From a virus: 64,000 bases of DNA. Numbering within the stretch: the stretch's first letter is position 1; every line of letters starts with the position of its first letter. This document shows, one piece after another, positions 19,893 to 61,405 of the stretch. The notes beneath the pieces were generated by a model, which had not been told where the DNA came from, made no database searches, and saw only the letters and a program-made list of their open reading frames with translations. Both the position numbers and the translations under genes were made by a program. The stretch lies in IMG/VR virus record IMGVR_UViG_3300010244_000098; one strand, given 5' to 3'.

Positions 19893-19904
19893 TGTTACTA
19901 TATA

Positions 19905-27972: not shown

Positions 27973-28273
27973 AAATAAAGTATAACTTATTGTGTATTCG
28001 TTCGTCAACACCCTCTGTATATCGTAGCGAGCAGACACCTTGATCCTTATTGAAATAGTTTCTTACTCTTGGAGAGTATAAAACCCAAATGAGCAATGGA
28101 CACTTGCCGATCTATTATGTACGGTCATCCCAAATCGGCAATCTTGGAGGTGTGTGACTCATTCGATAATTCTAGTTTACTAAACTTCTTATTCCAAAGT
28201 CAATCCCCGGGCAACCCCACGGCAGAGGCCTTTGTGGACCACGGTCCCATGACGTTTGCCCTCCATTATTTCG

Positions 28274-28337
28274 GTAACAAATTAACACGTCAACAAATCA
28301 ACAAAGTAATTCATTTATTTATTAACACGTTAATAGA
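28274..28337. repeat. 8-bp-period array of the same family as the parA-upstream array
   Basis: GTAACAAA TTAACACG TCAACAAA TCAACAAA GTAATTCA TTTATTTA TTAACACG TTAATAGA. Confidence 0.7.
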
Positions 28338-28380
28338 AGAAAAAGACTCACTGACGATACGTCAATGAGTCTAGACAACG

Positions 28381-31606: not shown

Positions 31607-32129
31607 ATCCTCACCTCTCTTTCGCCGTGCCACAAGGCCGTGGCACGTTATTCGAGTCCAGTATAGCACACGGCCGGGTTCGGAATACATACCCACCCTA
31701 TTGAGCGTGTTTCTACTATTATATGTCGATTCTTTGTGTCGGTCGTTGCCAAAAGATAAAAACGTGTTTCTACTATATAAATGCACCTTTTATTTTAAAA
31801 CCCGACAAAAAAGAAGCGCCCCTTTTTTAAGGAACGCTTCTTAAAGACAGATCTCTCTATGTATTGTATGTAGATAAAGAAAACCTGTTTGTCATTATTA
31901 CGGGCTTTCACCCAAAGACGTGTGTGTATTTATTATAGCACGGCACGGATCCGATAGGCAATCATTAAAATCATTTCGCCGTGTCCTTTTATCGTCTGTA
32001 CTCCCACAGCGTATTCAACATAAAGATAAAGTCCGGGAGAGATCTATACGAAAAGCCCGTTTATTTTATGCAATAATTGATAATTTATACACGGAAATGA
32101 ATAAAAAAACCACTTCACAAGCTCCGTTT

Positions 32130-33005
32130 CTCTGGGACATCTTGGGACAAAGTCTATTTTGAAAGAGAGTAAAAAACCGACCTGAAACTTACTCCCCCAA
32201 CGGAAAAGACGATTTTACCCGCTCTGTCCCATTCTGGGACAAAATGGGACATTTCTGGGACAAAACGGGAAAATTTGGGACAGATTTATCAATTTCACAA
32301 ACTTTTTTGCTTTCGCTCATTTATTTTCAAAAAGCTTGGTTTTACAAAAGCTCACTCAATACACTTTTGCGAAATCAAGTAAATTATTTTTTGAGGGGTT
32401 TTATTTCTAAAAAGGTTGGTTTTACAAAAGCTCACTCAATACACGTCCATGACGACAAAATGACCCAAAAAAGGCTAAATTATACACACTCAATGCGCTT
32501 TTGCAAAATGAGGTATTTTACAAAAAAATACTTGCGGGATACAAGTACCCGGAAAAACCCCAAATTCTGTCCCAAAAATAGGGGTGTTTGTCCCAAAAAA
32601 AGGCGATTTTGTCCCAGAGCCCTATTTTTGCAAAAGTGCTATAAAGGCTGATACAAAAGCAATGGAATGAAAACAACGCTTTCGCTCTGACCCAAAATGT
32701 CCCAGTCTGGGACAAGAAAAAAGAAAAGAAAAAGAGTCTATAAAAACTGATATAAAAGGATTATTAAAGAAATAAGAGATAGATATTTAAGAGTTTTGTC
32801 CCAAAATTCCCATATATAAAACTAGAAAGTTTGATTTGGGAAATCGGCCTTTGAGAAAAGCTTGGTTTTACAAAAGCTCATTCAGTACACATATTTTATC
32901 TATTTTATACACATTCAATGAGCTTTTGCGAAATCAAGTAAATTATTTTTTCTATTTTTCAAAATTCAATAGGGGGTTTTCGGAATCGATTTTGGGACAA
33001 ACCCG
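32130..33005. repeat. iteron-rich putative replication origin at the strand-switch point
   Basis: More than a dozen TGGGACA/TGTCCCA heptamers with 10-11 or 21-bp spacing; three copies of ~AAAAGCTTGGTTTTACAAAAGCTCACTCAATACAC; two of CTTTTGCGAAATCAAGTAAATTATTTTT; AT-rich 32715-32790. Confidence 0.7.
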
Positions 33006-33158
33006 ATTTTTCCGACTTGTATAAATGAATGTATATTCTGTATACATGGAACACCTCCCTCACCGGCTCAGCCGGTAGAGGGTGAAGGAGCGATTGCTCA
33101 TTAGTTAAATTTCCGTCGAAGCCTTTTAGATAAATGTGTAATATATACACGTTGGGAA

Positions 33159-33218
33159 TTGACTTTGTCTTCCTCGGTTGATATACTAATAATAGAGAAA
33201 CGTTGCAATATTGCAACG
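33159..33218 (+). promoter_or_regulatory. sigmaA promoter plus perfect 18-bp palindromic operator of the primase/PolB operon
   Basis: TTGACT-17-TATACT, 13 bp, CGTTGCAATATTGCAACG (33201-33218). Confidence 0.78.
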
Positions 33219-33248
33219 GAATACACCGTCAAAGAAAGGAGCCTTTTT

Positions 33249-33527
33249 ATGGCTAAAAATTATGTCCGCAAAAATATGATGTTCCCTTCAGAACTTTACA
33301 GTGAAATAGAACAATATAGAGAAAAACATCATCTGTCTCACGTAACACAAGCAATCGTTCAATTGCTCGATATGGGTCTGGAATACACGCGAAAAATCGA
33401 GGAACGGTCTCTTACGGAATTAGGAATTGAGGTAGATACATATCCAGGCCCTTCGGTCGATAAGCAGGAAATGGAAAAGAAAAAAGTTAACGATGAAGAA
33501 GACGACGCTTCTGTTATAGAGAAATAA
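33249..33527 (+). CDS. RHH-like DNA-binding protein
   Basis: RBS AAAGGAG; VRKNMMFPSELYSEIEQYREKHHLSHVTQAIVQLLDMGL. Confidence 0.65.
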   Translation: MAKNYVRKNMMFPSELYSEIEQYREKHHLSHVTQAIVQLLDMGLEYTRKIEERSLTELGIEVDTYPGPSVDKQEMEKKKVNDEEDDASVIEK

Positions 33528-33579
33528 CCCTTTATTCTGAACTCCCTATTACATAAAGAAAGGAGGAACGGTCTCAACT

Positions 33580-36417
33580 ATGAAACTTGTTTATACAGGA
33601 GATCGATTGATGTCGAAGGACCCCGTTATCCAACAACCGTTTACGGCTGTCGAGTGGGTTCTCAAGCGTCATGAGTGGGCCAAAAACCATATTCAAGTAG
33701 ATCCGGATACATTTCTATTTGACTGGTCAGATCCGGAACCCTACGTTACGTATGCGTTGGATAAGAAACAAGAACTCGAAATCAAGAAAATCAAACAGAA
33801 AGACAATAACTTTCTATTCGCGACCGCATTCGGCGACATAGATAATCCGCAGACCCCGGACCGTGCTCCACGAAAAACAAGTGAAAACGGAGGGGTCTTG
33901 CGTCAATTCATCGGGTTGGATTATGATTTGATTACATTGGACGAAGCGAAAGAATTAAGTCAAAATGTTCATCAATTGTTGATTCACCAACAGGAAGCCA
34001 ATGTGGCTATGTACCCGAGTATCAGCTATCCATGGAAACCCCGTTTCCGCGTCGTGATCGACACGAAACAGTGGCTGGACAAAAAGACCTACAAGAAAGC
34101 TGTAGAGCACGTCATCGAATACTTGGGCGTGGATCCCCATGACGAATCAAACTATACTCTGGCCAAGCCTCTGAACAGTCCGTTGTACCTGCACGAATCG
34201 TCCGCCCGGTCGGTGATGTTCCAGACGACGAAGAAACCTCTCAATCTGACAAGAATTGGTTTTGACCCAGAGGAGGTTCGCCGGAGTCACGCGACCAAAA
34301 AAGCCACGCGGTTGTCCTCCTCGCCTTCGAAAAAGAACGACGATGACCAGGACGAGCCTATCGCTCCCTATCGGAGTGACCAGATTATCCAGGCTGTCGA
34401 TACTTTCTTGGCAAGCGATGAAGCCAGAGAGCAGATTGAAGATTATGACTATTTCTGGCGCTTTGCTGAAAGTCTGGCAGATGCGTACATGAGAGAGCTC
34501 GTTGACCGAGATTTCATTGATTATACGCTTCGTACGGTCGCCTTAGGGGACGCTCAGTGGGAAGAAGACAATTTAAATGTATTCGAAACACAACTGTCTA
34601 AATTGGAAGAATCGCCGGATAAACGCCAGTTAGTACGTCCTTTGAGCACGTATTTACCTATTGCCAGTGAAGTAAAAGCCAACAATCCTGACGTGCGAAA
34701 CCTCAGTCAACTGCTGGCCAGCCTGCTTCCCTCGACGTTTGAACCCAGCGGGAAATACAGCGTACAGGACGCTGCCGATACGATTGGCCAGTTCTTTGAA
34801 TTCGGCCTGCTCCCAGGTATTGAAGATGACGCGGAGGCTTTAGCTATATTTGACCCGTTAAACGGTATCTGGACGCATTCCAACAACGACTTTATTGCGA
34901 TGTTGAACGTTATCAAACCCGCTATCACACCGACTCAGGTGAAGACGGCCACGCTTTACTGGGCCGCTCAGGCGAACCGGAGTGATACGTATATCCGGCC
35001 TTACGACGGCAGTCAGTATCTGGTGTTTAAAAACACTGTCTTGGATATCAGCACTATGCAGACGCACGACTTAGGAAGCGAAAAAGTGAAGCGACAGCAG
35101 TTTACCAAGCGACACCAGATGATTATAAACTACGATCCGGATCCCGAATTGATCGACTATCCGACCGACAGCTTAAACGGACAAAACTGGAACGTGGAAC
35201 AATTCATCAGTGCGTACGCCCATAACGACGAAGATATACGAAAATATTTCCTTTTCGGTCTGGCGTTAGGTCTCTTTGCAGGTCATAATTCCGGTGTACA
35301 CTTTGATATTCAAGGAGAATCAGGGTCGGGGAAATCCACTCTGGCTTACATTTTCCGCGGGTTATACGGGTCTCAACGGGTTGCTGAAATCTTATTCAGC
35401 GACTTGAATAAAGAGTTCCCTATTACCAATTACAACCACGACACGACAGTGATCTGGGTCAAAGAATCCAATACCGGAACCAGTCCTTTGGACGACGACC
35501 ACGGCACGCCCTTTTATGACGGCCTGGCCGACGGGTATGCCCGTATTCCAGTAAAACACGCCGGAGACCAAATCGTGGCCAATCCGCCACAGGTCTACAT
35601 TGACGGAACACAATTGATCCAGTCTAACGACATTCGTACAGGACCGGCACGTCGTACTCTGGCCTACAAATTACCTAGTCCGATTGAACCATACCGGAAG
35701 CAGTTTTATTCCAATAACATTCATGAACGACTCATGACAGAAGAAAACCTGCAGTATATGGTTATGCAGATGATTCAAGCCTTCAGGACGATCGTTCCTG
35801 AACACCGCTTGGATAATTTCAAACTAAACCTCGGCGTGAAACATGATTTAGACATGCTCCCTAACATTGCTAAAGAATGGCGACAGGACTTCGTCAGCGC
35901 TGATTCCAATATGCGCCAATGGTATGACGACATGGTGTCCGAGTTCATTCTAACGGACAATATGGACGCCTGGTTGACCGATAGTTTCTTTTATGAGCTG
36001 TATCTTCATTGGTATGAGCAACGAAACCCGCAGGACCGGACCAAACGGTTTGCACGGCGCCTGCCGAACTTCACGGACATTTTGTATCAAATCTTTGAAG
36101 AAGTCGGCCTCCATATCATTACATTCAAAGACGCAGAGGGTCGAAACCGTTCGCGCATCACCTCTCCAGATAAGTGGGGAATTCACTGGGACGAATACGA
36201 TGAAAACCACACTCGTCCCGCACGGCTGTTGGATATCGGCCAGTGGAGTGAGGTGTACAAGAAACGCGTGAAGAACATTTACCGTCTTGTGACCTCTGAA
36301 CCTGACGAGCGACTGTATGACAAAGAAAGTCCTTTGGTCTATCATCCAAAAGAGTCCACGCGGGTCACCCAAAACCAATTACTGAAAACATCCAGCAAAA
36401 CCAAAAGCTCTGAGTGA
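33580..36417 (+). CDS. primase-SF3 helicase (phage/plasmid D5/P4-type)
   Basis: Prim-pol motifs FIGLDYD and PRFRVVI, PriCT-like YDYFWRF, D5_N-like LVFKNTVLDI, Walker A GESGSGKST, ARR finger, C-terminal winged-helix-like YELYLHWY. Confidence 0.82.
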   Translation: MKLVYTGDRLMSKDPVIQQPFTAVEWVLKRHEWAKNHIQVDPDTFLFDWSDPEPYVTYALDKKQELEIKKIKQKDNNFLFATAFGDIDNPQTPDRAPRKTSENGGVLRQFIGLDYDLITLDEAKELSQNVHQLLIHQQEANVAMYPSISYPWKPRFRVVIDTKQWLDKKTYKKAVEHVIEYLGVDPHDESNYTLAKPLNSPLYLHESSARSVMFQTTKKPLNLTRIGFDPEEVRRSHATKKATRLSSSPSKKNDDDQDEPIAPYRSDQIIQAVDTFLASDEAREQIEDYDYFWRFAESLADAYMRELVDRDFIDYTLRTVALGDAQWEEDNLNVFETQLSKLEESPDKRQLVRPLSTYLPIASEVKANNPDVRNLSQLLASLLPSTFEPSGKYSVQDAADTIGQFFEFGLLPGIEDDAEALAIFDPLNGIWTHSNNDFIAMLNVIKPAITPTQVKTATLYWAAQANRSDTYIRPYDGSQYLVFKNTVLDISTMQTHDLGSEKVKRQQFTKRHQMIINYDPDPELIDYPTDSLNGQNWNVEQFISAYAHNDEDIRKYFLFGLALGLFAGHNSGVHFDIQGESGSGKSTLAYIFRGLYGSQRVAEILFSDLNKEFPITNYNHDTTVIWVKESNTGTSPLDDDHGTPFYDGLADGYARIPVKHAGDQIVANPPQVYIDGTQLIQSNDIRTGPARRTLAYKLPSPIEPYRKQFYSNNIHERLMTEENLQYMVMQMIQAFRTIVPEHRLDNFKLNLGVKHDLDMLPNIAKEWRQDFVSADSNMRQWYDDMVSEFILTDNMDAWLTDSFFYELYLHWYEQRNPQDRTKRFARRLPNFTDILYQIFEEVGLHIITFKDAEGRNRSRITSPDKWGIHWDEYDENHTRPARLLDIGQWSEVYKKRVKNIYRLVTSEPDERLYDKESPLVYHPKESTRVTQNQLLKTSSKTKSSE

Positions 36418-36475
36418 TGCAGACACACCGGTGTCTGCTCATAAAAGGGTTTGTGAGAGAAAGGAGAAGACGGAT

Positions 36476-36997
36476 ATGCTACAAACAACAGAACAACAAG
36501 AAACGGAACGCGTCATGGAACGAATCAAAACAATGATTGAACAACGCATTAAAAAACACAGCGCTCCCTTATACCATACAGTGCAGAGGAACATAGCCGA
36601 CTTAAATCAAACCGTTTTTCAGACAGACACCCAGGTTCTTCGTTTAGTTCATGTCAAATACCGAACAGCAGAGTATGATTGGAACAAAGAACTCATTATT
36701 ACGAAACAACCCAGTGTCTTTACTGACAGAGAACTGATTTTGAGACTGTCGGATTCTTTAAAAAACCATATTCACGTGACCTTTGCCCTGTCAAGCACAG
36801 ATCCGAACCAACAAATAAACGATGCGAACATTAAGGTTCACGTCAAAACAAACCCTCGTCTCCGTGCCTCGTCTTTAAATAAGGCGCTGAGCACGTTATT
36901 GAACGAATGGACGAAAGAACCAATGGACGATGTTCTCGCGCGATGCCAAACAAAAATCAGTCAGGCAATTCTGATGAATCCGGCCCCTGATAAATAA
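36476..36997 (+). CDS. hypothetical protein
   Basis: RBS AAAGGAG before ATG 36476; lies between the primase and polymerase genes. Confidence 0.7.
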   Translation: MLQTTEQQETERVMERIKTMIEQRIKKHSAPLYHTVQRNIADLNQTVFQTDTQVLRLVHVKYRTAEYDWNKELIITKQPSVFTDRELILRLSDSLKNHIHVTFALSSTDPNQQINDANIKVHVKTNPRLRASSLNKALSTLLNEWTKEPMDDVLARCQTKISQAILMNPAPDK

Positions 36998-37024
36998 AAA
37001 ATAAATGAAAGGAAGATACCTCCT

Positions 37025-40000
37025 ATGGTTGCGTACAACCGATTCGATGTTTTTTATGACTATGAGGTCTTACAAAACGTCACGACCAACGCCATGCTTT
37101 ACCCTGGCGCAAAGAAAATCATAATCCCTTACAATACCCATATGGATAGTATTCAACCCGGCGACCATGAACTTCACGTCACCCCAGACGATGAACAATG
37201 GATCCGTGATTACGTTATCGAACAGAATAAAAGCAGTTTGCGTCGCTGGGGGGTTCCTGAAGACAATGTTCAATTAACCTCAAACTTTGTCGGAGAAATC
37301 GTTCAGCTAAATACAGTCAACAAACGCTACACCCTCCCCTATCACGGAGGGACGATGTTCGGGTATAATTCCAGCGGGTATGATGTTGCCATTACAGCGT
37401 TTTTATTAGATGAAATCAACGAATTATTGAAAAGCAATAAGAATGATCCGAAAGCGGTCAATATCAGTGCAAAAGATGTTCGTCAATTTTCAGACGCTTT
37501 AATCAACGGCCCGTCTAAAAGCCCGTGGCAGGGTGTCCGTGATTATGGAGACCAATACACGCGACGATCTTTATTTAATACGTTTGCGACATTGATGAAC
37601 AACCCGTACAACATAGATGTTCAATCACTGAACGCTAAAATGTCGAAAACAGCTTTGAAACGATTAGCTGCACAAGGCGGATTTAAAATTGAAACCAGCG
37701 ACAAACTATCTGAGCAAGCTTCAACTCTTCACTCTGTGGAGGAACTGGCTGAACTTCTGGCTTACAACGTAAACGATATTTTTGCTACGTTATGGTTGTT
37801 TGAACAAAAGCCCTACCAGACGCCGTACAACCAGCGAATCACGTTGATCGACCGGTACGGGGACAATCAATTCAAAGACAAAAACATTAAACGGGATTCA
37901 ACTGAAGCAAAATTGATTGAGAACGTGATCAGTCCTCGTGAGTCACTAACGGACGATCCCGAAGTCTCTTTGGCTTACCCTGTGACCCGCGGGTACATGC
38001 CCGATTCGTTTAAAAACCCCGACTTTACACTGGAACAAGCGAATGCTCTCTACAATCATTTAGAAGACGTGGCCAAAAAAAGCCACCCGGCGTTGTTTAA
38101 CGAAAATCCGTCCAAAGCCATGAACATGTATCTGTTCGAAAAATACGAAGAAGAAAAAGACCGCAATCCCGAACACCTTATTGTGAAGCATTTCTTCTTT
38201 AAAAACGGGTCCAATAAAATCATGGCAAGCAACGGCGAATTCGTATACACGGCAGACGGCTACAAAGGCTTTAACCGAACAATGCTCTCTGCTCTGGGAG
38301 AATATATCTTAAACACGGGTAATAGAGAAACAAACGATGCGCAGAAACAATTAAATCTTCAAGAAAAAGACGATTTAATGAAGCGGGCCTCCCCTAATGA
38401 CAATACGCCTGAAGTCAAATGGGACGAAACGGTCAACACAGTAATTGAACATATCGCAGAAGATCACCCGTTCTACCCGTGGTTTTATTATGAGGACGGT
38501 ATGAGAAAAGTTGTCGCTAAAGACAAACGTCTCATGGTTGACTTATTAAATTATGTCAGCAAACATTACAACCTGCCTCAAGATGTGTATACGTACTATG
38601 ACGCCTACCGTGGCCAAGACATGGGTGTGCGCGATGCTTCGAAAGCCGTAAAAGCCCAACTGGAAAAAGACGGATATAAACACTTGAAATCCGGCGCAGC
38701 CGTCCTCTTAACTCCGGAAAGCCCGGTGTATGTCACGATGTCTATCGGAGGCGTTCACGGAAACTTGATTGATCTGGAGAAATACAAAGAAGATAAGGCT
38801 ACAGCCGATACTTACAACGGCGAACGACAAGCCGTTATAGACTTTTACAGAGAAAAAGCCTCCCAGTTCAGTGCAGAAAAATACATTAAACTCACCGGCG
38901 AAACGTCTCAACAGGAGCAGGACAAGATTTATAGTCTGCTCGGAAAGATAAGCGACGACCCGGCGGACGATACCGTGCCGGCTGTCTTAGCCCGCCGAAC
39001 CAAACGAAACGGTTTTGTTCTGGGTGAAGGACAAGATATTCAAGATATGGAACCGTATCAATTCACGACAGGGTCCTACTCTCAGGCAAAATTTAAAACG
39101 AAGAAAACAACCAAGTCTCTCAAAACGTATACAACAACCCTGTATGACTTTGACGTTGTGCACATGGATATTTCCAGTTATTACCCGACGTTGATCTCTA
39201 TCCTGCAGACATTGAAGGCTCCAAGTGGTCAGGATCAGTACAACGATTTACGTCTGGAACGAATCAAATTGAAAGAACGTATTCCGTCCGACCCGGCAAC
39301 CTGGAACGAACAGGATAAAGAAGACCAGTCTATCCAACTGGCTAACAAGTTGCTGTTGAACGCCGCATCCGGCGCTGCCGATGCCAGTTATGACAACAAT
39401 ATCCGGGTAAACAACAAAGCTTATCGGATGCGTATTTCTGGACAGCTGATTTTATTGGCTTTGAGTCTGGATATTGCTGAAGCCGGCGGAGTTCCGAACT
39501 CAATCAACACGGACGGAGTTTATGCTCATGACATCAGTGAAGACACGGCAGACACCTTGATTCAGTCCTGGGCCAGCCTGTACAGTTTAGAAGCGGACAC
39601 GGAAATGGTGGATATTCTGATATCTAAAGATTCCAATAACCGTATCGAATACTACTTATCTGACCGGGGTGAAAGCATTATTGCATCCGGTGGAACAGTT
39701 GGGAACTGGGAAGGCACTACGCTCACAGGAAACTTGAACCGCCCTCCAATTGTCGATCGTGCATTGACGTACTATTTGATCAATCACGACAGTCCTTTGA
39801 CTCATTTTGACCGGAAATATGTCACAGACTACATTACCGGCTTCATTCAAGACCGCTTGGAGAAAGCCAAAGAAGACCCTGAGGAGCGGGAGGACCTGTT
39901 TAACTATTTCCAGACGCCGTTTGTATCCAATGTGAATAAGAACCGCTATATTGTCTACAAAGACACAAATGACCAATGGTCGTTCCCGAGCCCAATCAAC

Positions 40001-40312
40001 CGTATATTCTATACGAAGAAAACCGAAGAAGCCCTGCAGGCAACCATGGTTGTTATCAACCGAACCATTAAGAAAGACAATCCAGAAGCCCTGCGTATTG
40101 CTGATGAAACAAATCTCCTTGAGGACTCTGATTATCATACCGATGATAAAGTTCATGCTGGAACCATGAAAATTACAGGAGCCGATACGGAACAATGGTT
40201 TACAATCAAAAACCAAAGTACGGCGACTATCGACTGGCAATTTGTGAATGACTTTGACATTGAAGCCTATGTTGATAGTGTCCAAGATCAGTGGGATAAC
40301 TGGGCTGTATAG
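37025..40312 (+). CDS. family B DNA polymerase with 3'-5' exonuclease (phage type)
   Basis: ExoI FYDYEV, ExoII GYNSSGYD, ExoIII YNVND; polymerase motifs GGVHG, DISSYYP, KLLLNAASG, SGQL, INTDGV, KDSNNR. Confidence 0.85.
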   Translation: MVAYNRFDVFYDYEVLQNVTTNAMLYPGAKKIIIPYNTHMDSIQPGDHELHVTPDDEQWIRDYVIEQNKSSLRRWGVPEDNVQLTSNFVGEIVQLNTVNKRYTLPYHGGTMFGYNSSGYDVAITAFLLDEINELLKSNKNDPKAVNISAKDVRQFSDALINGPSKSPWQGVRDYGDQYTRRSLFNTFATLMNNPYNIDVQSLNAKMSKTALKRLAAQGGFKIETSDKLSEQASTLHSVEELAELLAYNVNDIFATLWLFEQKPYQTPYNQRITLIDRYGDNQFKDKNIKRDSTEAKLIENVISPRESLTDDPEVSLAYPVTRGYMPDSFKNPDFTLEQANALYNHLEDVAKKSHPALFNENPSKAMNMYLFEKYEEEKDRNPEHLIVKHFFFKNGSNKIMASNGEFVYTADGYKGFNRTMLSALGEYILNTGNRETNDAQKQLNLQEKDDLMKRASPNDNTPEVKWDETVNTVIEHIAEDHPFYPWFYYEDGMRKVVAKDKRLMVDLLNYVSKHYNLPQDVYTYYDAYRGQDMGVRDASKAVKAQLEKDGYKHLKSGAAVLLTPESPVYVTMSIGGVHGNLIDLEKYKEDKATADTYNGERQAVIDFYREKASQFSAEKYIKLTGETSQQEQDKIYSLLGKISDDPADDTVPAVLARRTKRNGFVLGEGQDIQDMEPYQFTTGSYSQAKFKTKKTTKSLKTYTTTLYDFDVVHMDISSYYPTLISILQTLKAPSGQDQYNDLRLERIKLKERIPSDPATWNEQDKEDQSIQLANKLLLNAASGAADASYDNNIRVNNKAYRMRISGQLILLALSLDIAEAGGVPNSINTDGVYAHDISEDTADTLIQSWASLYSLEADTEMVDILISKDSNNRIEYYLSDRGESIIASGGTVGNWEGTTLTGNLNRPPIVDRALTYYLINHDSPLTHFDRKYVTDYITGFIQDRLEKAKEDPEEREDLFNYFQTPFVSNVNKNRYIVYKDTNDQWSFPSPINRIFYTKKTEEALQATMVVINRTIKKDNPEALRIADETNLLEDSDYHTDDKVHAGTMKITGADTEQWFTIKNQSTATIDWQFVNDFDIEAYVDSVQDQWDNWAV

Positions 40313-40322
40313 ATGAAAGACC

Positions 40323-40347
40323 AAAAGAGCCCCGCAAGGGCTCTTTT
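40323..40347 (+). terminator. intrinsic terminator
   Basis: AAAAGAGCCC-CGCAA-GGGCTCTTTT. Confidence 0.85.
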
Positions 40348-40383
40348 ATTTTTATACTCTAAGAAAAGAAAGGAACGCCCCCT

Positions 40384-41193
40384 ATGACCTCACAAAAACA
40401 AAAACCCATGGATTTTCTCTCCATTGTTGTCAAAACCATGTTGTCTGCGGGTACATACCGTATCCAACGAGAGCCGTTTACTCTCTATCCTGAGACCAAC
40501 GGCACGGATAAGACAGATCCGGGATTGGCTACAAGAGAAGGATTGCTTAAAAGTGTCTACCGCCTGTTCGAAATGGACTGGGTGGAGTCCTTTGACAGCA
40601 ACCCTTACCGTTTTTTAACACAGAACCAAATCGACTATGGCATAAATAGTGAGTTTGCCTTGTCTTTTGATCCCTTCCGCAGTGTGGCCTATATCGATTA
40701 CAGCATTCAGCCGGAAGACCCTGCTCATCCGGTCATCACCTTCCCTATCACCCAGACGATTCCTATGAGTGCCGGAGATATAGCTACCATCGGCAACCCT
40801 ATGGAACGAGCGCTGAAAGACCTGATCAGCCGAGCCGACGATCAACATTTTGACGAAGTCAACGAGCAGACCATTGCGTTATTGAGCGAGACACATCCTT
40901 CGACGAAGCAGGTCTGGTTCACTTTCAAAGAGCAACTGATTATGCAACTCTCTCAAGTCGACTTCTCTACCCTGTTTGGAAACAGTGAATGGAAAGAAAG
41001 CATTTATCAAAATCACGTCGTTATCACGATGACCGATGAGAACCATCAGGGTTATCCGTCGATTTCTATATTTGACGGCGACCCCGTAATTCAAAATCGA
41101 AACGAACTCAACCGGGCGGACATGGTCGTGCCCTCCCCGATGTTTTCATTTAGCCGAGTGGAGTACGAACCCTTTACTGACCCCCTTTCCTAG
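40384..41193 (+). CDS. hypothetical protein
   Basis: RBS AAAGGAA, 269 aa, no recognised motif. Confidence 0.7.
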   Translation: MTSQKQKPMDFLSIVVKTMLSAGTYRIQREPFTLYPETNGTDKTDPGLATREGLLKSVYRLFEMDWVESFDSNPYRFLTQNQIDYGINSEFALSFDPFRSVAYIDYSIQPEDPAHPVITFPITQTIPMSAGDIATIGNPMERALKDLISRADDQHFDEVNEQTIALLSETHPSTKQVWFTFKEQLIMQLSQVDFSTLFGNSEWKESIYQNHVVITMTDENHQGYPSISIFDGDPVIQNRNELNRADMVVPSPMFSFSRVEYEPFTDPLS

Positions 41194-41264
41194 GGGGTAC
41201 AGAATAAAAGCCCCTTTGTGCTACAATTACACAGAAACGACGGAACAGAAAGGAATGACTCTTA

Positions 41265-43655: not shown

Positions 43656-45186
43656 TCGAAAGAAACAGGAAGATACGTTTCGTCATAAACACCCGTTTCT
43701 CTCCTCGTTTTGGCTGAAGAATATAAAACCTCTGCTTCTTGTCACGGCTGTTGTGTCAGCCGGCTTCATTGGTGTTATCACCTGGCATTTATGGGGGCAG
43801 TATCAAGACAGTGTGTATTGGGCAGAGCACCATGATGAGAATATCGTCATGGCTGACCAGCCCCCTTCCCTGCTTTATGATACAGACGCAACGTCCCGAA
43901 ATGCCAAGATGAGTTTTACAAGCCTTGTCCAATCCGTGTATGACCAGGAGACCCGGGACTTCACAGAAGAAATGAACCAGGAGTCTATGGACCAGTTACA
44001 GGCTCAGTTAGACCAGATGACCAATGATGACTACAAGCAGACCTACATCGATCAGTTTGAACGACTGGAGAACAAATGGACGATTGAGCAGGCGTATCGA
44101 GCGCTTTATACCAACGAGGAGTTCACAACGATACGCGCTGATGTAACCCCTCATCAAATTGTTGCTCTAAACAACGATACGTTCGAAGCCATTGACGAAT
44201 ACTCTCTGGACAGCAACCACACGGACCAGTTTGCCATCCGTATTCATGAGTGGCAGACCAAACTCTTAGAAGACGTATTGACGATACAAAACCAAACGTT
44301 GACCTTAAGCCAGTGGTTGAATCAGAGTGACGAAAGCTACACCGTTCAAGCAGACTTGTATCCGGGTCAATTGGACCCTTTTGTGACGAGTCTAGAGGAC
44401 ATGACCCTGCATTATGAATGGAACAATACAGGAAAACTCCAGACCGTTGTTCAGCGCATGCAGACGATCACCCAGAAATATCAAGAACGCCACGACGCAT
44501 ACAATACCTACGTGGCCGATGTTGAAGACGGGGAGGAAGCCAGAGCTGAACACCAGCAGCGTCTGGACACGGCAAAGGCCAACCTAGAGAACCATCAGGA
44601 ACAAATCAACCAGGCGCGTCAAGAACTCCAGGAAAACGAACAGGCCACCCGTCAGTTGATCGACGACTTAAGCGACCAATTAGATGAGGCCAAAAGCCGT
44701 GCTGAAGATGAACAGCAGACCATTCAAGAGGACGCCGAACAGGCCATTGAAGACTTCGAGCAGGAGCAACAGGAAGAGCGGGAACGAGACCAACAAGAAC
44801 AGGAGGAGGAAGAAACCCGCGAGGACGAATCTGAGAACGACGAAGACAACGAATCGTCCGAGGACTCCTCTGAAGACGATGATTCCGGGTCCGATGATGA
44901 CAATGGAAACGAGGAAGAATCGTCTCCGCCGGGTAACAACGAATCAGACTCCAGCAGCACGGAGGAACCCTCCTCCAGTGCCCCGCCGGACTCTGACGAA
45001 GCGTCAGGTTTGACCGAAGACGCATTGGACAACCTTGTCGGCGAACCGCTTCCCGAAGACTTGTCTATTCCGCACGAAATCGAATACGAAGACGATGCGG
45101 ATGAAGAAACCGATAATCTCGTTGTTCAGGAATACACCATTAATAATGAAGAAGAAGTGGTCCAGTTTATACTGGGAACAGAATGA
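43585..45186 (+). CDS. membrane-anchored protein with MapZ-like extracellular helical domain, coiled coil and acidic linker
   Basis: Basic N-terminus, one TM helix, repeated VY/LY-x-(D/N)...F pattern (VQSVYDQETRDF; YRALYTNEEFTTIRADVT). The MapZ similarity is tentative. Confidence 0.5.
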   Translation: MKKTSKKRRKRQTNKLKKQHKANNRKKQEDTFRHKHPFLSSFWLKNIKPLLLVTAVVSAGFIGVITWHLWGQYQDSVYWAEHHDENIVMADQPPSLLYDTDATSRNAKMSFTSLVQSVYDQETRDFTEEMNQESMDQLQAQLDQMTNDDYKQTYIDQFERLENKWTIEQAYRALYTNEEFTTIRADVTPHQIVALNNDTFEAIDEYSLDSNHTDQFAIRIHEWQTKLLEDVLTIQNQTLTLSQWLNQSDESYTVQADLYPGQLDPFVTSLEDMTLHYEWNNTGKLQTVVQRMQTITQKYQERHDAYNTYVADVEDGEEARAEHQQRLDTAKANLENHQEQINQARQELQENEQATRQLIDDLSDQLDEAKSRAEDEQQTIQEDAEQAIEDFEQEQQEERERDQQEQEEEETREDESENDEDNESSEDSSEDDDSGSDDDNGNEEESSPPGNNESDSSSTEEPSSSAPPDSDEASGLTEDALDNLVGEPLPEDLSIPHEIEYEDDADEETDNLVVQEYTINNEEEVVQFILGTE

Positions 45187-45256
45187 TAAACGTCCCCGAA
45201 CGCTCTGCGTCCGGGGATAAAAAAGAAAAAAATGATGACAATGAAGAAAGGAGATT

Positions 45257-46255
45257 ATGATGAAACCGACGATTCCTGAACGAATCCCTAAAGAACTCGT
45301 CGAAGCGCCCATATGGACCTTATCGGGTGCTTCGAAGATCCCATTGGATCCTTATGCGTTGATCTATCGGGACCAGAAAAGAGGGTTTTCCCCGAAAAAG
45401 CACCAATTAATGCCTTTGGAGAAGATATGGGCATATCTCCAAGAAACCGACGACGAGGACTTAAAGGCCGCCATGCGAGTCACGTCCGACCTTCCCTATG
45501 TCGTTGTTGATATCGAGCCCGAAGGAATGATTAGCGGGAGCCCTTATTTCAAATGGCCGTATGTGTATCTGGAATACTCCAGGAACTACGGTATGCACGG
45601 CATTCTCCCCTTCTCGCCCCCTGAGGAGTATGCTTATCTGAAAGAGAAATTTATGATTAAAGACCCGGCTTGGGAAAGTGAAGTTCTTGTCGGCAAAGGC
45701 CACTTTGCAACCTTTACGTTCAATGAGCAGCCGTTGAATCAAACGGACGAACGTCGCCTTTTTTCAGCAAGTCCCCTGTTCCAGGAAGGCTTCGCTGAAC
45801 ACTTAGCGAGCAAGACGAAGAAGACACGGACTATGGACTCCGACGCCGCTATCCAAATGGAACCCGGTCAGTTCAAGGACCTGACGGATACGGCAATCGG
45901 TTCATACGACCAGTCCATCGCTGACTCTATTTTAGAAAGCGCAGAAACTCTTGAAATTGATTCGACCGATGATCCGTCCCATGCCGAAAATAGAAAGATT
46001 CTGCAGATTTACAACTTTATGATTTATAGAGACAAGGCCTATCTATCCGAATCGAACTTAGAAAGCCGAACCATTCCGCTGTTATGGTCGTTAACCAAAG
46101 ACCTTATTCCTGCCCGGGAGAAACACAGCACGTTACGGGACTCCGCCGATTATGGAGAAGTGCCTTGGCTGGGTTATGTCATGTTGGGAGGGATTGAATA
46201 TATTCGAAACAGTGCTCTCAATGATGAAGAAAAAGCCCGTTGGGTGAAGCAATAA
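45257..46255 (+). CDS. stand-alone prim-pol (AEP, NrS-1-like N-terminal domain)
   Basis: RIPKELVEAPIW...KIP...VVVDIE...YLEYSRNYGMHGI...EV...HFATFT. Confidence 0.65.
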   Translation: MMKPTIPERIPKELVEAPIWTLSGASKIPLDPYALIYRDQKRGFSPKKHQLMPLEKIWAYLQETDDEDLKAAMRVTSDLPYVVVDIEPEGMISGSPYFKWPYVYLEYSRNYGMHGILPFSPPEEYAYLKEKFMIKDPAWESEVLVGKGHFATFTFNEQPLNQTDERRLFSASPLFQEGFAEHLASKTKKTRTMDSDAAIQMEPGQFKDLTDTAIGSYDQSIADSILESAETLEIDSTDDPSHAENRKILQIYNFMIYRDKAYLSESNLESRTIPLLWSLTKDLIPAREKHSTLRDSADYGEVPWLGYVMLGGIEYIRNSALNDEEKARWVKQ

Positions 46256-46398
46256 CGGGAGTTTGGAGCACCTAGGAATTCATATTCGGCTGTGATATAC
46301 TTAATGTGTACAAAACACTATTGTGTCACAGACACAATAGTGTAAATAAAGCAAAGATGACAAAATAAATAATGACTTAAAAGGAGTTATGATACATC

Positions 46399-47961
46399 AT
46401 GGCGAATACAACTGCATTAACGAATACAAAGGTTAAAGACTTTGATATTGCTGATTCAAATGGTCAGTACAAACTGATTGTAGAAGAAGAAAACCCGTTT
46501 GCTCTTTTTGACAGCGGAGGCTTAACATACGAAATTATGTTGTTCTCTCGTTCGTATCAAGACGGAAAAATCGAAGAAGAATCAATCGAACAGACCCAAA
46601 ACACATTAAGAGAACAACTGGGCGATGAGAACATTGTTTTCACAGACCCCAAAAACGCAACGGACGACGCAAATCATTTCGAAAACTGGGTGAAAAATCA
46701 CGTCGGCGCTCCTGTTAAATTGGTTACTAAAGGCGACGGCAACTATTATCACTTAGGCGAAGGCCGTTCCGGCGGAAGCTTCCTGGGTGACTCTCGATTC
46801 TTGAAGAACTATGAGAAAGTCACAGGGACTTATGACCCGACAGAGCACCGTGTCCGTTTCTTTGATTCATTGACAGAGAAACAAAAAGAAGCAGTTGAGA
46901 CAAAAGACGAAACGCGCTTCTCGTCTATTTATAAGTCCAACAGCGGAAGCTTCAAGAGTTTAAACATGGAAGGCGTTGTAACGGACGTTATCTTGACGCA
47001 TTTAGATAATCAAGACAACTCTCCTCAACGATTCACTCGTGACGAAATTCGTACAGAAATCATCGATACGTTAGCGTCTGGAACGAAAGTTGTTGAGAAC
47101 AACAAATACTTAGCGGACCAAATCGAAAGCCTTCCTGAAGACTTTGCTTATATGGAATTGTTAACTATTGTCGGTGGTTCGGGTGCCGAAAACGTTCAAG
47201 GAACAAAACAACACGCTATTAGCGGCTTCTTGAGCAGTATTGCTCGAATCTCTATACGTTTCCATATTCAAAATCCTGAAACAGGCTATGTGTTCCAGTC
47301 CACAGCAATCAACGCCGGTGGAAACAAAGGAGCTATCGAAAGCAACAGCCTGCAATTCGAAATCGTTACGGGAGACGAAACGATGCGTGACTTTGCGTCA
47401 TTCATGACGAAATTGGCAAAACTTCCGACAACAGACATGAGTGCGCAGGATATTCTACAGGTCTTAGTTGAAAACGGCTTTTACAACAAAGAAGAAGGCC
47501 GTATGTTGACTGACGATGCGCAAAGTATGCTGGACGCAACAAGAGCTGTGATGAACGGCCGTGTTATTGATATCTCGTCTTCTCTTGTTACACCGAGAGA
47601 CGGCGAAAAAGATATTGATAAACTGGGCTCGAAAATCCGCGGTTTACATGCGAACCAAAGCAACGACAATATTAAGACGGCATTGGTTCAGCCAAGCGAA
47701 GCACCGGCTCCTTCTCAAGAAGCAGATGCTGTCAGCGACCCGTTCCAATCTCTAAAAGCTGAAACACCAGAAGAAACCCCATCACAAGAAGCAACGAATG
47801 ACGTGCAAGGCAATCCATTTGCAGAAGATGCAGAGGAAGAACCAAGCGCTAACCCGTTTGCTGACGATACTGACGACGTTGAAGAAGTCCCTTCTTCTGA
47901 TGAAGCAACAGACACATCAGACGAAGAAGAAAAAGACCTTCTCGACAACCCGTTCAAGTAA
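46399..47961 (+). CDS. hypothetical protein with SSB-like acidic tail (four D/N-P-F motifs)
   Basis: Own extended -10 promoter and terminator, strong RBS; tail SDPFQ, GNPFA, ANPFA, DLLDNPFK. Confidence 0.6.
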   Translation: MANTTALTNTKVKDFDIADSNGQYKLIVEEENPFALFDSGGLTYEIMLFSRSYQDGKIEEESIEQTQNTLREQLGDENIVFTDPKNATDDANHFENWVKNHVGAPVKLVTKGDGNYYHLGEGRSGGSFLGDSRFLKNYEKVTGTYDPTEHRVRFFDSLTEKQKEAVETKDETRFSSIYKSNSGSFKSLNMEGVVTDVILTHLDNQDNSPQRFTRDEIRTEIIDTLASGTKVVENNKYLADQIESLPEDFAYMELLTIVGGSGAENVQGTKQHAISGFLSSIARISIRFHIQNPETGYVFQSTAINAGGNKGAIESNSLQFEIVTGDETMRDFASFMTKLAKLPTTDMSAQDILQVLVENGFYNKEEGRMLTDDAQSMLDATRAVMNGRVIDISSSLVTPRDGEKDIDKLGSKIRGLHANQSNDNIKTALVQPSEAPAPSQEADAVSDPFQSLKAETPEETPSQEATNDVQGNPFAEDAEEEPSANPFADDTDDVEEVPSSDEATDTSDEEEKDLLDNPFK

Positions 47962-47971
47962 CATTCGTCCA

Positions 47972-48004
47972 TAGCCCTATCTTCTGAGATAGGGCTTCTT
48001 TTTT
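47972..48004 (+). terminator. intrinsic terminator
   Basis: AGCCCTATCT-TCTG-AGATAGGGCT-TCTTTTT. Confidence 0.85.
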
Positions 48005-48022
48005 AAGAAAGGAGCATACACT

Positions 48023-48601
48023 ATGCCAATAACTGATATTTGGAAAAAAGTAAAAACTAATGTTAAAAACCTGGGAAACCTGCTTTCGAAAAACAAGGAG
48101 AAGCAACCGATCGGTCTTCCCTCCCCTGACACTCAACGCTATGAGTTAACCGATGAAACCTTTGAGATACAAACCGGAACAAAACCGATCACATTATACC
48201 GTATACGCTCGCTGACGACGTTTACGTGGAATCACCCTTACGAGAACCCGTATCACATAAAACGTGGAGATTTGGGCGGTTTTGTGGAGAAAAGAGACAA
48301 TCTTGACGAATACTCCAACGCATGGATTGCCGAAAACGCTATGGTCTACGGCGACGCTGTCGTCACCGACAAAGCGCTCGTTCGCGGTCAAGCAAGCGTA
48401 TCCGGCTACGCGTCGATCTCTGGGAACAGTTTGGTCCAAGACCTTGTTGCCGTAAAAGACTTTGCGAAAATATCTGGAACAGCCGTTGTCTATGACGCAA
48501 TCACCATTGAAGACCAAACAGAAATCAAAAACGATGTGTACGTCCGTGGAGACAAACGTGTCCGTGTTAACAAGGACAGCCCGCAGACCGTACTCGGATA
48601 A
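48023..48601 (+). CDS. phage-type left-handed beta-helix (hexapeptide repeat) protein
   Basis: LYRIRSL...GDLGGFVEK..NL...NAWIAENAMVYGDAVVTDKALVRGQASVSG. Confidence 0.75.
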   Translation: MPITDIWKKVKTNVKNLGNLLSKNKEKQPIGLPSPDTQRYELTDETFEIQTGTKPITLYRIRSLTTFTWNHPYENPYHIKRGDLGGFVEKRDNLDEYSNAWIAENAMVYGDAVVTDKALVRGQASVSGYASISGNSLVQDLVAVKDFAKISGTAVVYDAITIEDQTEIKNDVYVRGDKRVRVNKDSPQTVLG

Positions 48602-48608
48602 GAGGGAT

Positions 48609-50078
48609 ATGATGCAACAACCAACAGTCAAACCGACGTATCGGTACGAGGAACGAAAGGAGACCGTGGCGCTGTCTGAACATCTCAAACACGTCACGGA
48701 CCAACATCCGTTTGCCCTTCTGACCACAGGCGTTGGAAGTGGCAAGACGTTCGTTGCCATACGCATGGCCTATTTATACGACCCGAACGCCTTCCTGCTA
48801 GTGATTGCTCCCAAATCAAAAATTGAGGAGCACTCCTGGGAGCCGTCGGTGGAGGCCTTTAATCGCACCATGAACAGTGATCTAACGATATACAGCACCA
48901 ATTACGACCAATTGCAGGCTAAAGACGGACCGAAGAATATATCGGACCAGCTCGAACAAGCCTGTGATGAAAACCGAACAGTTATACTGATTTATGATGA
49001 GGCTCACGTCATCAAACTGAGCCCTGACGGAACAATCAGCAAAACCGCAAAATTAGCCATTCAATTGAGTCAGACAAACGTCATTGACCATACGATCGGC
49101 GCGACAGGTACGCCCCTGGCCAACTCTTATGTTGACTACGGGACGTATTTTGTTATGGCCGGTTTTTATACAAGCAAATCCAAATATTTAAAAGAACAAG
49201 TTATCCAGTGGGATCAGTATTTCGCCCCTGTCGTCAAAAACCCCGTCACCGGGAAGATCGATCGTAACTTATTCTGGGAACCGGATAAAATTGACGCCAT
49301 GCAGAACTCAATCACCGTCTACGACGAAACGGAAGGACTCCTTCCGCCGTATAAAGAACACTGGGTGCCTTTTACCATGAGCAACGATGAATCCCTTGCT
49401 TTTGTCGATGAGGAACTGGCTGACGAATTTACCCATAATGAAGCCAAAGAACGAACCTATTTGGGGCATTACAAACACGTCAAGCAAATGGTGAGAAACG
49501 GCGGGTATTTCGAGTTTCCTGTTACTGGAATCACTCGTATGCGCAGGTATATGGCCAAAGACCCCGAACGGCTGAAACAAGCCGCACGGATTCTTTACAA
49601 CAAGCTGTATACCAAGAACCCCCATCCTGTTCTTATCTTTTACTTAAACAATGCCGAAAAAGAGGTGTTGGAGGAGCTGCTGACCACCAATCAACATTTC
49701 CAGCACGTCCACCTTCGATACGTCAACGGCGACCAGAAAGACCCGCTCATTCCCGATCATCAAGAGACGGTTTACCTGATTCAGTATAAGGCCGGGAGTG
49801 CCGCTATTGAGATTCCTGAGGCTAAAACGACTATTTTCTACATGCCTACCTATTCGTATGCTGATTTCAAACAAGCCAAAGGACGAAATCGACGAAACTT
49901 AAAGAGTGACCGAAACACCTCAGACACGATTCATTATTACTATTTGTCCGCAACGAACACCTTAGATGAACGCATTTGGGACGCTGTATCCAATAAACGA
50001 GATTTTTCTAATAAAGCCCTCAGGTCATGGATAAATAGTCAGAAAGGAGATTTTATGAATGGAATATCAATTAGCTAA
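48609..50078 (+). CDS. SF2 (DEAH/SNF2-like) helicase
   Basis: TGVGSGKT, IYDEAH, ATGTP, QAKGRNRR; RBS GAGGGA favours the start at 48609. Confidence 0.85.
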   Translation: MMQQPTVKPTYRYEERKETVALSEHLKHVTDQHPFALLTTGVGSGKTFVAIRMAYLYDPNAFLLVIAPKSKIEEHSWEPSVEAFNRTMNSDLTIYSTNYDQLQAKDGPKNISDQLEQACDENRTVILIYDEAHVIKLSPDGTISKTAKLAIQLSQTNVIDHTIGATGTPLANSYVDYGTYFVMAGFYTSKSKYLKEQVIQWDQYFAPVVKNPVTGKIDRNLFWEPDKIDAMQNSITVYDETEGLLPPYKEHWVPFTMSNDESLAFVDEELADEFTHNEAKERTYLGHYKHVKQMVRNGGYFEFPVTGITRMRRYMAKDPERLKQAARILYNKLYTKNPHPVLIFYLNNAEKEVLEELLTTNQHFQHVHLRYVNGDQKDPLIPDHQETVYLIQYKAGSAAIEIPEAKTTIFYMPTYSYADFKQAKGRNRRNLKSDRNTSDTIHYYYLSATNTLDERIWDAVSNKRDFSNKALRSWINSQKGDFMNGISIS

Positions 50079-51963: not shown

Positions 51964-51979
51964 GAAAGGACATCGAATT

Positions 51980-52477
51980 ATGTTATTCCCTACTTTTAAA
52001 TTTAAAATCAAAGACTTGAGCGACCAATTCCACGTGGTCCAAGTGGACGACAAGACCGAAGTTCACTGGATATACGGCGGATTTGATATCTATGAGGCCG
52101 CACAAAAGCATCCGTACCGCGTTCATAAATCGACAGGAATCAAACACCTTTCCGACCGAATGAAACAATGGATCAGCAGTGAAGATAACGAGCCGATGTT
52201 TCACGTCATTGCTGAAATAAGTGAAGTGGACGAACATGCCGTCGCTATGGATATATCTCCGTACCACCTGCCGGAACACATGAGAAAACGCGTCGCTCCA
52301 TTGATCGCTGCTTACGTGGCTACCCCTTTGACAGACCGGACGCAACGAATCCAAGCAACGATTGAACCGCAGGTGGAATCCGGATTTGAGAAACGCCAGC
52401 GGGAGAAAAACGAGAATAAGAAATACTTTGATGATTTATTGAATCGACAAAAAGCCACGTCACAGAAAGTGAGGTAA
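51980..52477 (+). CDS. hypothetical protein
   Basis: RBS GAAAGGA, in operon. Confidence 0.65.
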   Translation: MLFPTFKFKIKDLSDQFHVVQVDDKTEVHWIYGGFDIYEAAQKHPYRVHKSTGIKHLSDRMKQWISSEDNEPMFHVIAEISEVDEHAVAMDISPYHLPEHMRKRVAPLIAAYVATPLTDRTQRIQATIEPQVESGFEKRQREKNENKKYFDDLLNRQKATSQKVR

Positions 52478-52480
52478 ACG

Positions 52481-53338
52481 ATGCTCTATTATACAAAATA
52501 CGCCACACCGATACGGGCAGATATCACTCTGCCTATTACCTTAATCGGAACAGGCTCAGAAGGAAATAGCATTGTTATTGACCCTTTTCGTTTAATGATC
52601 GATGTTGGATTTGCCTACGGGAAAATAACGGAGCACGTCAACATGGACCAGGTCGACTTTGTGGCTTTAACTCATGAACACATGGATCATTTAAAAATCT
52701 CCACGTTAAAACGATTCGTCAAACGCCACCCTCACCTTGTTCTGCTTATGCCGGAACGGGTGTGGGATTTCATACAGAACAAAGACCCAAACGGCAGTGC
52801 TCAAATCGAACACCGGGTTCAACCCTTTCCATTTGATAAACCGTTCTTATTGGAGACAAGAGACAAATCGTCCTATATTATTACACCTCACTCAACCAAT
52901 CACGGCGACATTACCAATGTCGCCTATGAAATAACGGACGAAGAAACGGGCACGCATATGCTCTATGCGACAGATTTGGACACGTTTGACGAAGGACCGG
53001 ACGGGTTTCCGTCGGGACTTCCTCAGTCCACCAATGACCCGTTTAATCTCATATTCCTCGAAGCGAACTATGATGAGGAGGTTTTGAGTCAGTACATTCG
53101 AGAAAAGACAGCCCTTATCCGCGAAAAAGAAATGGAACAGTTTACCGGCGGTTCGTCAGAGAAAGAATTGAAGACCCACCGCAATCACTTGTTCCGGGCT
53201 AAAAGCAACTGGCGCCACGTCAGCGAACAAGAAGCGATTCACTATATCGGCAAACACTTAACGCCCGGCGGGTTGTTCATTCCCATGCACGCCAGCCGGA
53301 CATTCGGCACGTATTTTCAGGATATGGCCGAGGAGTAA
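52481..53338 (+). CDS. metallo-beta-lactamase-fold hydrolase (phage YycJ-like nuclease)
   Basis: IGTGSEGNS, IDVG, THEHMDH, LYATD, LEANYD, HVS, PMHAS. Confidence 0.85.
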   Translation: MLYYTKYATPIRADITLPITLIGTGSEGNSIVIDPFRLMIDVGFAYGKITEHVNMDQVDFVALTHEHMDHLKISTLKRFVKRHPHLVLLMPERVWDFIQNKDPNGSAQIEHRVQPFPFDKPFLLETRDKSSYIITPHSTNHGDITNVAYEITDEETGTHMLYATDLDTFDEGPDGFPSGLPQSTNDPFNLIFLEANYDEEVLSQYIREKTALIREKEMEQFTGGSSEKELKTHRNHLFRAKSNWRHVSEQEAIHYIGKHLTPGGLFIPMHASRTFGTYFQDMAEE

Positions 53339-54974: not shown

Positions 54975-55100
54975 TCAAAGAGTACGCGAGACAGGCAGGA
55001 ACTTCGGTTCCTGTCTATTTTTTTGACCTGTTTCACGGTCTTCATTTTACAAAAGACTTAATGCTATACTGAATCTATAATGTATACGAGGAGGAAACAC

Positions 55101-58346: not shown

Positions 58347-58390
58347 TCCAGGGAGTTTACTTCCCTAATCGCTTTTGATATACTGAAATT

Positions 58391-59939: not shown

Positions 59940-59949
59940 CAGAAAAGAG

Positions 59950-61294: not shown

Positions 61295-61357
61295 AATGAA
61301 AATTTCATAGAAGAAATAGAAACAAGCATACTAGACAAAATGAAAGGATATCGACGA

Positions 61358-61397: not shown

Positions 61398-61405
61398 AGG
61401 CCGTT

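Follow-up and report, generated by a model that had tools for sequence, protein, structure and literature searches.

The 64-kb window analysed here is part of a 222,077-bp contig, probably from a plant metagenome, that is filed as a virus (IMG/VR record IMGVR_UViG_3300010244_000098), and it raises the question of whether an element with transfer genes can copy itself with replication enzymes of its own. To our knowledge, plasmids and integrative and conjugative elements are thought to borrow the replisome of their host. A preliminary description of the window had proposed a self-synthesising conjugative replicon at positions 32130–53338. This region is fairly probably the native replication module, i.e. 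the own replisome, of a Gram-positive megaplasmid of the transfer type with a size of ~220 kb. Negative results given below for the window cover these 64 kb.

Replication proteins of the window

The window consists of two divergent arms split at 32.1–33.1 kb. The right arm contains, in this order, a regulator-like gene, a primase-helicase, a family B DNA polymerase (PolB), a class A penicillin-binding protein (PBP), a second archaeo-eukaryotic primase (AEP), a 520-residue protein, a superfamily 2 (SF2) helicase, a protein with metallo-beta-lactamase (MBL) fold, Cas9 and a short array. The replication proteins and the leader gene are the following:

33159–33527, + strand: small leader gene, probably a ribbon-helix-helix/helix-turn-helix regulator (putative function, weak match)
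33580–36417, + strand: AEP primase fused to a D5/superfamily 3 (SF3) helicase, 945 residues; proposed origin-binding initiator-helicase
37025–40312, + strand: family B DNA polymerase, 1095 residues, with large insertions (assigned by motifs and AlphaFold fold search)
45257–46255, + strand: stand-alone NrS-1-like AEP primase-polymerase, 332 residues; core gene of the family
46399–47961, + strand: 520-residue protein with acidic tail; possible but unconfirmed single-stranded DNA-binding protein (SSB)
48462–50078, + strand: SF2 (SNF2-like) helicase; core gene of the family
52481–53338, + strand: MBL-fold hydrolase, putative nuclease

The PolB possesses all six motifs (Exo I–III and A, B, C) with their catalytic acids at residues 10, 114, 247, 715, 775 and 828. 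Every listed Protein Data Bank (PDB) fold match of its AlphaFold model (predicted local distance difference test score 86.6) is a family B polymerase, and the nearest viral folds are siphovirus, Lactococcus P087 and crAss-like PolBs (template-modelling (TM) score by target up to 0.76). Neither the Pfam and PHROG polymerase models nor a sequence search of the PDB gave a match. The catalytic motifs are retained in 79–98% of 179 members of the PolB family. The intact exonuclease and polymerase motifs together with the fold search bear out the earlier assignment of a proofreading family B enzyme, and its clade represents an uncharacterised polymerase lineage.

We infer that this PolB is the replicase of the element. 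Within the family no other gene is as constant as PolB, which lies directly behind the helicase gene with its proofreading motifs kept and has phage replicases as its nearest folds. These features make it improbable that the helicase and its repeat array (see below) form a replicon using the host replisome, with PolB as an accessory repair or recombination polymerase, even though pathogenicity islands of Staphylococcus aureus (SaPI) and P4 are generally known to pair their own primase-helicase with a host polymerase, bacterial family B enzymes (E. coli Pol II, for example) serve in repair, and no clamp was seen.

The primase-helicase matches a PHROG primase profile (E 1.7e-7), and African swine fever virus PrimPol, the SaPI5 primase-helicase and poxvirus D5 are found among its fold matches (E 2e-14 to 1e-10), in agreement with its former naming as a primase-SF3 helicase. 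A metagenome scan using the primase gave no match. The leader gene in front of it encodes 66 residues in relatives, and its true start is probably the ATG near 33249. The second AEP is NrS-1/Prim-Pol-like (atlas score 0.95–0.97) with catalytic motifs retained across 12 elements, which supports its description as a second prim-pol, and domain searches confirmed the SF2 helicase. The MBL fold of the protein at 52481–53338 was likewise found, its nuclease activity being presumptive. In the case of the 520-residue protein the SSB-like label was not confirmed: the only lead is a weak structural resemblance to DUF669 (TM 0.50 over 116 residues, poor model), and there is no profile match to the SSB of relatives.

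If the module operates as we propose, the SF3 helicase would recognise convergent heptamers upstream of its own operon, by analogy with P4 alpha and SaPI Rep, melt the AT-rich centre and load there as a hexamer. Primers would be laid by one or both AEPs and extended by the proofreading PolB; the SF2 helicase and the MBL-fold protein may aid fork remodelling and primer removal. Host ligase would still be required.

Candidate origin upstream of the helicase gene

The heptamers are concentrated in the region where the two arms diverge:

32130–33000: candidate origin (putative function); the heptamer TGGGACA occurs 14 times, counting both strands, and most copies point towards an AT-rich centre

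The same word occurs only 3 times in the remaining 63 kb of the window. The spacers between the heptamers diverge in the relatives L001 and L002, but the heptamers themselves are conserved there. With an array defined as a heptamer, of whatever sequence, that is repeated 8 or more times in both orientations no more than 1.6 kb upstream of the helicase gene, arrays were found at 87 of 101 related loci (which are not independent) versus 20 of 1057 control windows. The heptamer word varies by lineage around TGT-NN-C(A/G) and its position is constant; the pattern recurs in Streptomyces/Arthrobacter, in a 53%-GC gut lineage, in several clostridia-like elements and in the window's own group. An open reading frame at 32244–32651 was rejected as a gene and taken as noncoding origin DNA, because relatives have no called gene at that place.

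This arrangement, a primase with an SF3 helicase next to direct and inverted iterons with an AT-rich core, is the one of SaPI Pri-Rep and P4 alpha. The origins of P4 and SaPI have an iteron layout and are bound by the primase-helicase itself, and the SaPI5 primase-helicase is a known iteron-binding initiator. By this analogy the heptamer array is likely to be the replication origin, and the helicase presumably binds it. Some elements contain two helicase genes (G062 at 12633 and 52435; G045 at about 122000–126600). In G062 the two helicase genes have separate heptamer arrays whose words differ, and these two helicase-array pairs offer a natural test of helicase-origin specificity.

The element family, its transfer genes and probably acquired replicons

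The PolB family is taxonomically wide yet rare. Its clade comprises 379 clusters at 50% identity (E up to 1e-30). GTDB genomes from Actinobacteria and Firmicutes contain it in 88 stretches, many copies being chromosomal, and it also occurs in 27 IMG/VR records and in 3 of 72,556 PLSDB plasmids. It was found in none of 400 sampled Actinomycetes genomes, and 50,697 phage records yielded no full-length match. PolB is a marker of a family of 100–250 kb elements in these two phyla. In the chromosome of an Acetilactobacillus metagenome-assembled genome (L006, 9298–12057) the remnant of a broken-up PolB lies among host genes, and another piece follows at a distance of 40 kb; this is a decayed element.

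Ten long relatives from two phyla have ~30 genes in common. These include PolB, the helicase, the second AEP, the SF2 helicase, DHH/RecJ, a UvrD-like helicase, AAA ATPases and topoisomerase I, as well as SSB, an actin-like protein, the MobL relaxase, VirD4 and an RNA polymerase of 1800–2000 residues. One core cluster (cluster 11), considered as a Rep initiator, turned out to be the actin-like protein. The RNA polymerase, whose gene lies a short way downstream of VirD4, is a single-chain two-barrel enzyme in which the metal-binding motif is intact; this NCgl1702-type enzyme is present in 46 of 53 PolB-positive genomes or records. The window contains neither it nor Alp nor MobL, and the RNA polymerase of the window's element is expected to the left of the window, downstream of VirD4. 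Homologues also occur on Lactococcus cremoris megaplasmids (pJM1A and kin; L246:14878–22026) and on 55–65 kb Staphylococcus plasmids, all of them annotated as hypothetical.

The near-complete set consists of 22 IMG/VR records, 15 of them circular (direct terminal repeats). None of the 22 has RepA_N above the cut-off or a tyrosine integrase, one has Rep_3, and a large serine recombinase was absent from all 13 records tested. These circular molecules without the tested Rep or integrase genes therefore need another route of copying. The claim of a self-synthesising replicon stands in so far as the module is conserved on non-phage elements with transfer genes; independence of host DnaE, PolC and ligase is hypothetical.

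An alternative is that the module acts in an induced or transfer phase only, either amplifying the element after excision or SOS induction or making the second strand in the recipient, with maintenance being provided by integration or by an ordinary Rep with host polymerases. Many copies are chromosomal, some with a large serine recombinase 14–80 kb away, and CGP3 of Corynebacterium glutamicum, a likely relative, is silent when integrated, its circular DNA rising ~10-fold after mitomycin C (PMC4446434). Moreover, the window itself has intact-looking RepA_N and Rep_3 replicons, and the parts are uncoupled in L003 and pJM1A. We nevertheless regard this explanation as unlikely, though deserving attention, because the circular relatives lack the tested integrases as well as RepA_N and nearly always Rep_3, and because the iteron-type array points to theta initiation and not to synthesis primed at the origin of transfer. 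A native module that replicates the element remains the preferred reading.

The transfer genes of the window are located in the left arm:

1–3659, − strand: coupling protein VirD4 of the long type, truncated by the edge of the window
29231–31786, − strand: VirB1-like cell-wall hydrolase (lysozyme-like and M23 domains), divergent from the origin

Both had been named in the preliminary description, and domain searches found them as well as RecD2 and both type II topoisomerase subunits, all outside positions 32130–53338. The TcpC-like label given to the open reading frame 28381–29175 was not confirmed, as it has no Pfam or NCBIfam match to type IV secretion proteins. In 27 of 38 genomes the contig that carries PolB also encodes VirD4, nearly always of the long type, at a distance of 33–82 kb (28 loci). 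VirD4 is likewise present in 23 of 26 relatives. MobL occurs in all 22 near-complete relatives versus none in the window. A core gene of ~300 residues is similar to the N-terminal part of VirB4 (E 1.8e-8), and the core gene that follows it is without Walker A; this split VirB4-like pair is found family-wide, e.g. at L174:9549–12396 (G062), and a Clp-like AAA+ ATPase is core to the same transfer region. Another core protein, a possible VirB6 counterpart, is multi-pass, with 4–8 predicted membrane helices and no family match. PLSDB classes pGKT2, one of the three plasmids with PolB, as merely mobilisable. The sequences thus suggest that the element is likely conjugative, with a transfer system that is either atypical or help-dependent. 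The coupling protein and wall hydrolase in the window and MobL in relatives speak for the conjugation proposed earlier, and an intact VirB4 was not found in five complete circles or in the window.

Could the element be a phage-plasmid or a defective jumbo prophage, with virion genes too divergent for recognition or located in the remaining 158 kb? As noted in the preliminary description, capsid, terminase and tail genes are missing from the window (no match among ~40 scanned proteins, 64 of 222 kb). Terminase_6N is absent from all 22 near-complete records, and TerL_ATPase and Phage_capsid from the 5 complete records tested, these being three Pfam families. The frequency of MobL and VirD4, the lack of a full-length PolB match in phage records and the fact that CGP3 makes no virions (PMC4446434) argue in the same direction. 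It is true that IMG/VR lists 27 relatives among its viruses, that the replisome and RNA polymerase are phage-like, that VirB4 looks degenerate and that CGP3 has been called a prophage, but taken together a phage identity of this kind is very improbable. The 27 records in question (L112–L138) are in many cases rated 100% complete and carry transfer genes and none of the tested virion families; they look like misfiled plasmids.

Within the family the window belongs to a sub-lineage with L001, L002, L109 and L247 (contigs up to 210–222 kb), which has the longer AEP-fused helicase and in addition PBP, RecD2 and topoisomerase II. The search for a syntenic gene set in other assemblies, suggested earlier, revealed the order primase-PolB-PBP-AEP2 in L001, L002 and L247 at a PolB identity of 32–69%. 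The complete 229,674-bp circle G045 contains PolB, MBL, PBP, RecD2 and VirD4 as in the window and neither Rep. As topoisomerase II and RecD2 are genes of the sub-lineage and not of the family core, decatenation independent of the host, another part of the original proposal, is no family trait.

A further block of the left arm differs from its surroundings:

9989–19840: low-GC inserted block with RepA_N, ParA, Rep_3 with iterons (14161–14925), Dam methylase with DUF6996/6997/7226 partner, and resolvase

The block has 32–37% GC versus 44–46% for the backbone and sits between both topoisomerase genes with the resolvase at its border. Its Rep genes resemble initiators of small Firmicute plasmids (Tetragenococcus, Enterococcus, Staphylococcus), and both look intact, each with its own repeats. 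In L002 the 12.5 kb that follow its topoisomerase B gene carry a different cargo. Read depth is even (85–91) over 1–20000 in run X1, which is probably the source sample and so gives no independent support; the join at 15.63–15.71 kb passes through a short repeat. The view that RepA_N and Rep_3 are later additions is probably right, given the GC contrast, the plasmid-like matches and their near absence from the relatives checked for them: they would have been gained late by co-integration of small Firmicute plasmids. They may share or carry the routine maintenance of the window's molecule, which would now have up to three replicons. The Dam-type methylase and its DUF6996/DUF6997/DUF7226 partner (16322–18509, − strand, ~29% GC) are probably a restriction-modification pair.

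Several observations weigh against a native, self-sufficient module. L247, a close relative, shows no clear array, nor do 13 further loci, and L003 has PolB with neither helicase nor array beside it. Neither a clamp nor a ligase was found, nor an SSB that could be confirmed. VirB4 (PF19044) is absent from 5 complete circles and from the window. In the lactococcal megaplasmid pJM1A the RNA polymerase is accompanied by a Rep_3-like initiator and PolB is absent, and pGKT2 is typed as rep_cluster_394; the Rep families tested were two, RepA_N and Rep_3. A single lineage of 53% GC accounts for about 15 of the 22 near-complete records, and Streptomyces/Arthrobacter for most genome loci, so these counts are not independent.

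The remaining genes of the replication operon and of the left arm are listed below:

36431–36997, + strand: 188-residue protein, also present in close relatives
40384–41193, + strand: 269-residue protein, immediately 3′ of PolB in every close relative
41265–43655, + strand: class A PBP (transglycosylase-transpeptidase), conserved in the window's sub-lineage
43585–45186, + strand: membrane-anchored coiled-coil protein, weak PASTA match in one relative
24617–27568, − strand: RecD2-type superfamily 1 helicase (domain search)
20546–22537, − strand: type II topoisomerase B subunit (ParE/GyrB)
3948–6110, − strand: type II topoisomerase A subunit (ParC/GyrA)

The PBP and its membrane coiled-coil partner (41265–45186) lie within the replication operon and are conserved in L001–L003, L247, G040 and G045; the pair perhaps serves in wall repair after transfer or in exclusion. 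The left arm contains, counted from the split, the VirB1-like hydrolase, RecD2, membrane proteins, the topoisomerase B subunit and the low-GC block, followed by an Ig-like surface protein, the topoisomerase A subunit and the long VirD4. A 40-nt element is present at 6796–6835 and, inverted and 85% alike, at 33182–33221, where it precedes the gene 6379–6780 and the replication operon, respectively; a third copy was found elsewhere in run X1. It may be a shared operator or a promoter specific to the element, perhaps one that its own RNA polymerase uses. Degenerate 8-bp AT-rich repeat arrays precede four genes (12508–12567, 28272–28347, 59834–59949 and 61357–61403) and are candidate centromere-like or regulator-binding sites. 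The Cas9 (1088 residues, 55080–59014, + strand) has intact motifs, with a tracrRNA-like anti-repeat at 58390–58428 and an array of 5 repeats and 4 spacers, two of them identical. No cas1 or cas2 was seen near it, and the spacers have no self-target and no phage match. This locus is a plasmid-borne, interference-only type II system.

Comparison with known systems

Taken together, the data tentatively suggest, at somewhat less than even probability, a distinct class of 100–250 kb Gram-positive replicons that would be self-copying, self-transcribing and actin-segregated and would spread by an atypical MobL/VirD4 system and not by virions; CGP3 would be a member that is integrated and has been mistaken for a prophage, and PBP, type II topoisomerase and Cas9 would be additions in the sub-lineage of the window. 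The line between jumbo phage and conjugative plasmid is blurred by large elements, spread over two phyla, that combine a relaxase with a replisome and an RNA polymerase, and an own replisome and RNA polymerase would explain one gene backbone across hosts of 29–64% GC. The family has been missed by replicon typing, both polymerases being annotated as hypothetical, and filed as viruses in IMG/VR. In the mostly open-access literature no description was found of the PolB clade, of the origin array or of the family as non-phage replicons.

We know of elements with their own PolB, namely pipolins and casposons, as small ones that are not known for conjugation. Pipolins, which occur integrated or as plasmids, are mobile elements of bacteria with a family B polymerase as their defining gene (PMC11551731). 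Their PolB primes itself, whereas the PolB of the window is accompanied by AEP primases and an SF3 helicase, has a crAss-like/P087-type fold and belongs to elements of 100–250 kb with MobL and VirD4. The presence in only 3 PLSDB plasmids and the crAss-like nearest folds indicate that the window's element is probably not a pipolin. SaPI and P4, which share the helicase-iteron arrangement discussed above, are phage satellites of 10–15 kb using host polymerase and helper virions; the window's element is ~15 times larger and adds PolB and transfer genes.

The same trio of SF3 helicase, AEP and PolB is found in the crAss-like and HelPrimPolB polymerase groups (Kazlauskas 2020, PMC7544198) and in GP55 of phage 1706 (PMC12205980), which are the closest structural neighbours of the window PolB. 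Those are phage enzymes, fused in GP55, whereas members of the window's clade have ~1000–1300 residues, are unfused, reside on non-phage elements and match no PHROG or Pfam polymerase model. The three PLSDB plasmids with PolB, Gordonia pGKT2, Rhodococcus pGS01 and the Streptomyces NBC_01454 plasmid, all encode the RNA polymerase, both enzymes being annotated as hypothetical, and pGKT2 has the full family backbone. They are without PBP, RecD2 and topoisomerase II, and their helicase has 550–740 residues; the ~380 extra N-terminal residues of the window's protein hold the AEP. The Streptomyces scab element TR2/ICESt was considered as a known family; neither a polymerase nor a primase is mentioned in the paper on it.

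Of the entities described so far, CGP3 appears to be the closest. Its presumed link to the present family includes the NCgl1702 gene, which we take to be located inside CGP3, and a 2012 work by Iyer and Aravind is said to treat NCgl1702-like elements, so that part of the picture may already be in print. NCgl1702 is a 2169-residue beta::beta′ fusion RNA polymerase of C. glutamicum (PMC2919709), and enzymes like it have been named "RNAPs of mobile elements" (PMC7824862). CGP3 is an integrated 187-kb "cryptic prophage" without virions, able to replicate as an extrachromosomal circle, whose first gene is actin-like (AlpC) and which encodes the primase cg1959 and the Lsr2-like silencer cg1966 (PMC4446434, PMC5137423). 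CGP3 and the PolB family thus share an actin-like protein, a primase/helicase, an Lsr2-like gene and a circular form; Lsr2 lies near PolB in pGKT2 and pGS01, and C. glutamicum is the sole one of 14 control genomes with MobL, VirD4 being present too. In contrast to the elements considered here, CGP3 is integrated and described as a phage; no paper was found that gives it a PolB or transfer genes, IMG/VR contains no CGP3-like record, and no 2169-residue enzyme is among the RNA polymerase matches. On the basis of the papers and the control genomes, we hold it quite probable that CGP3 belongs to the PolB element family. If it does, its replication and missing virions can be tested in a tractable model, with candidate genes that can be named and an origin predicted upstream of cg1959.

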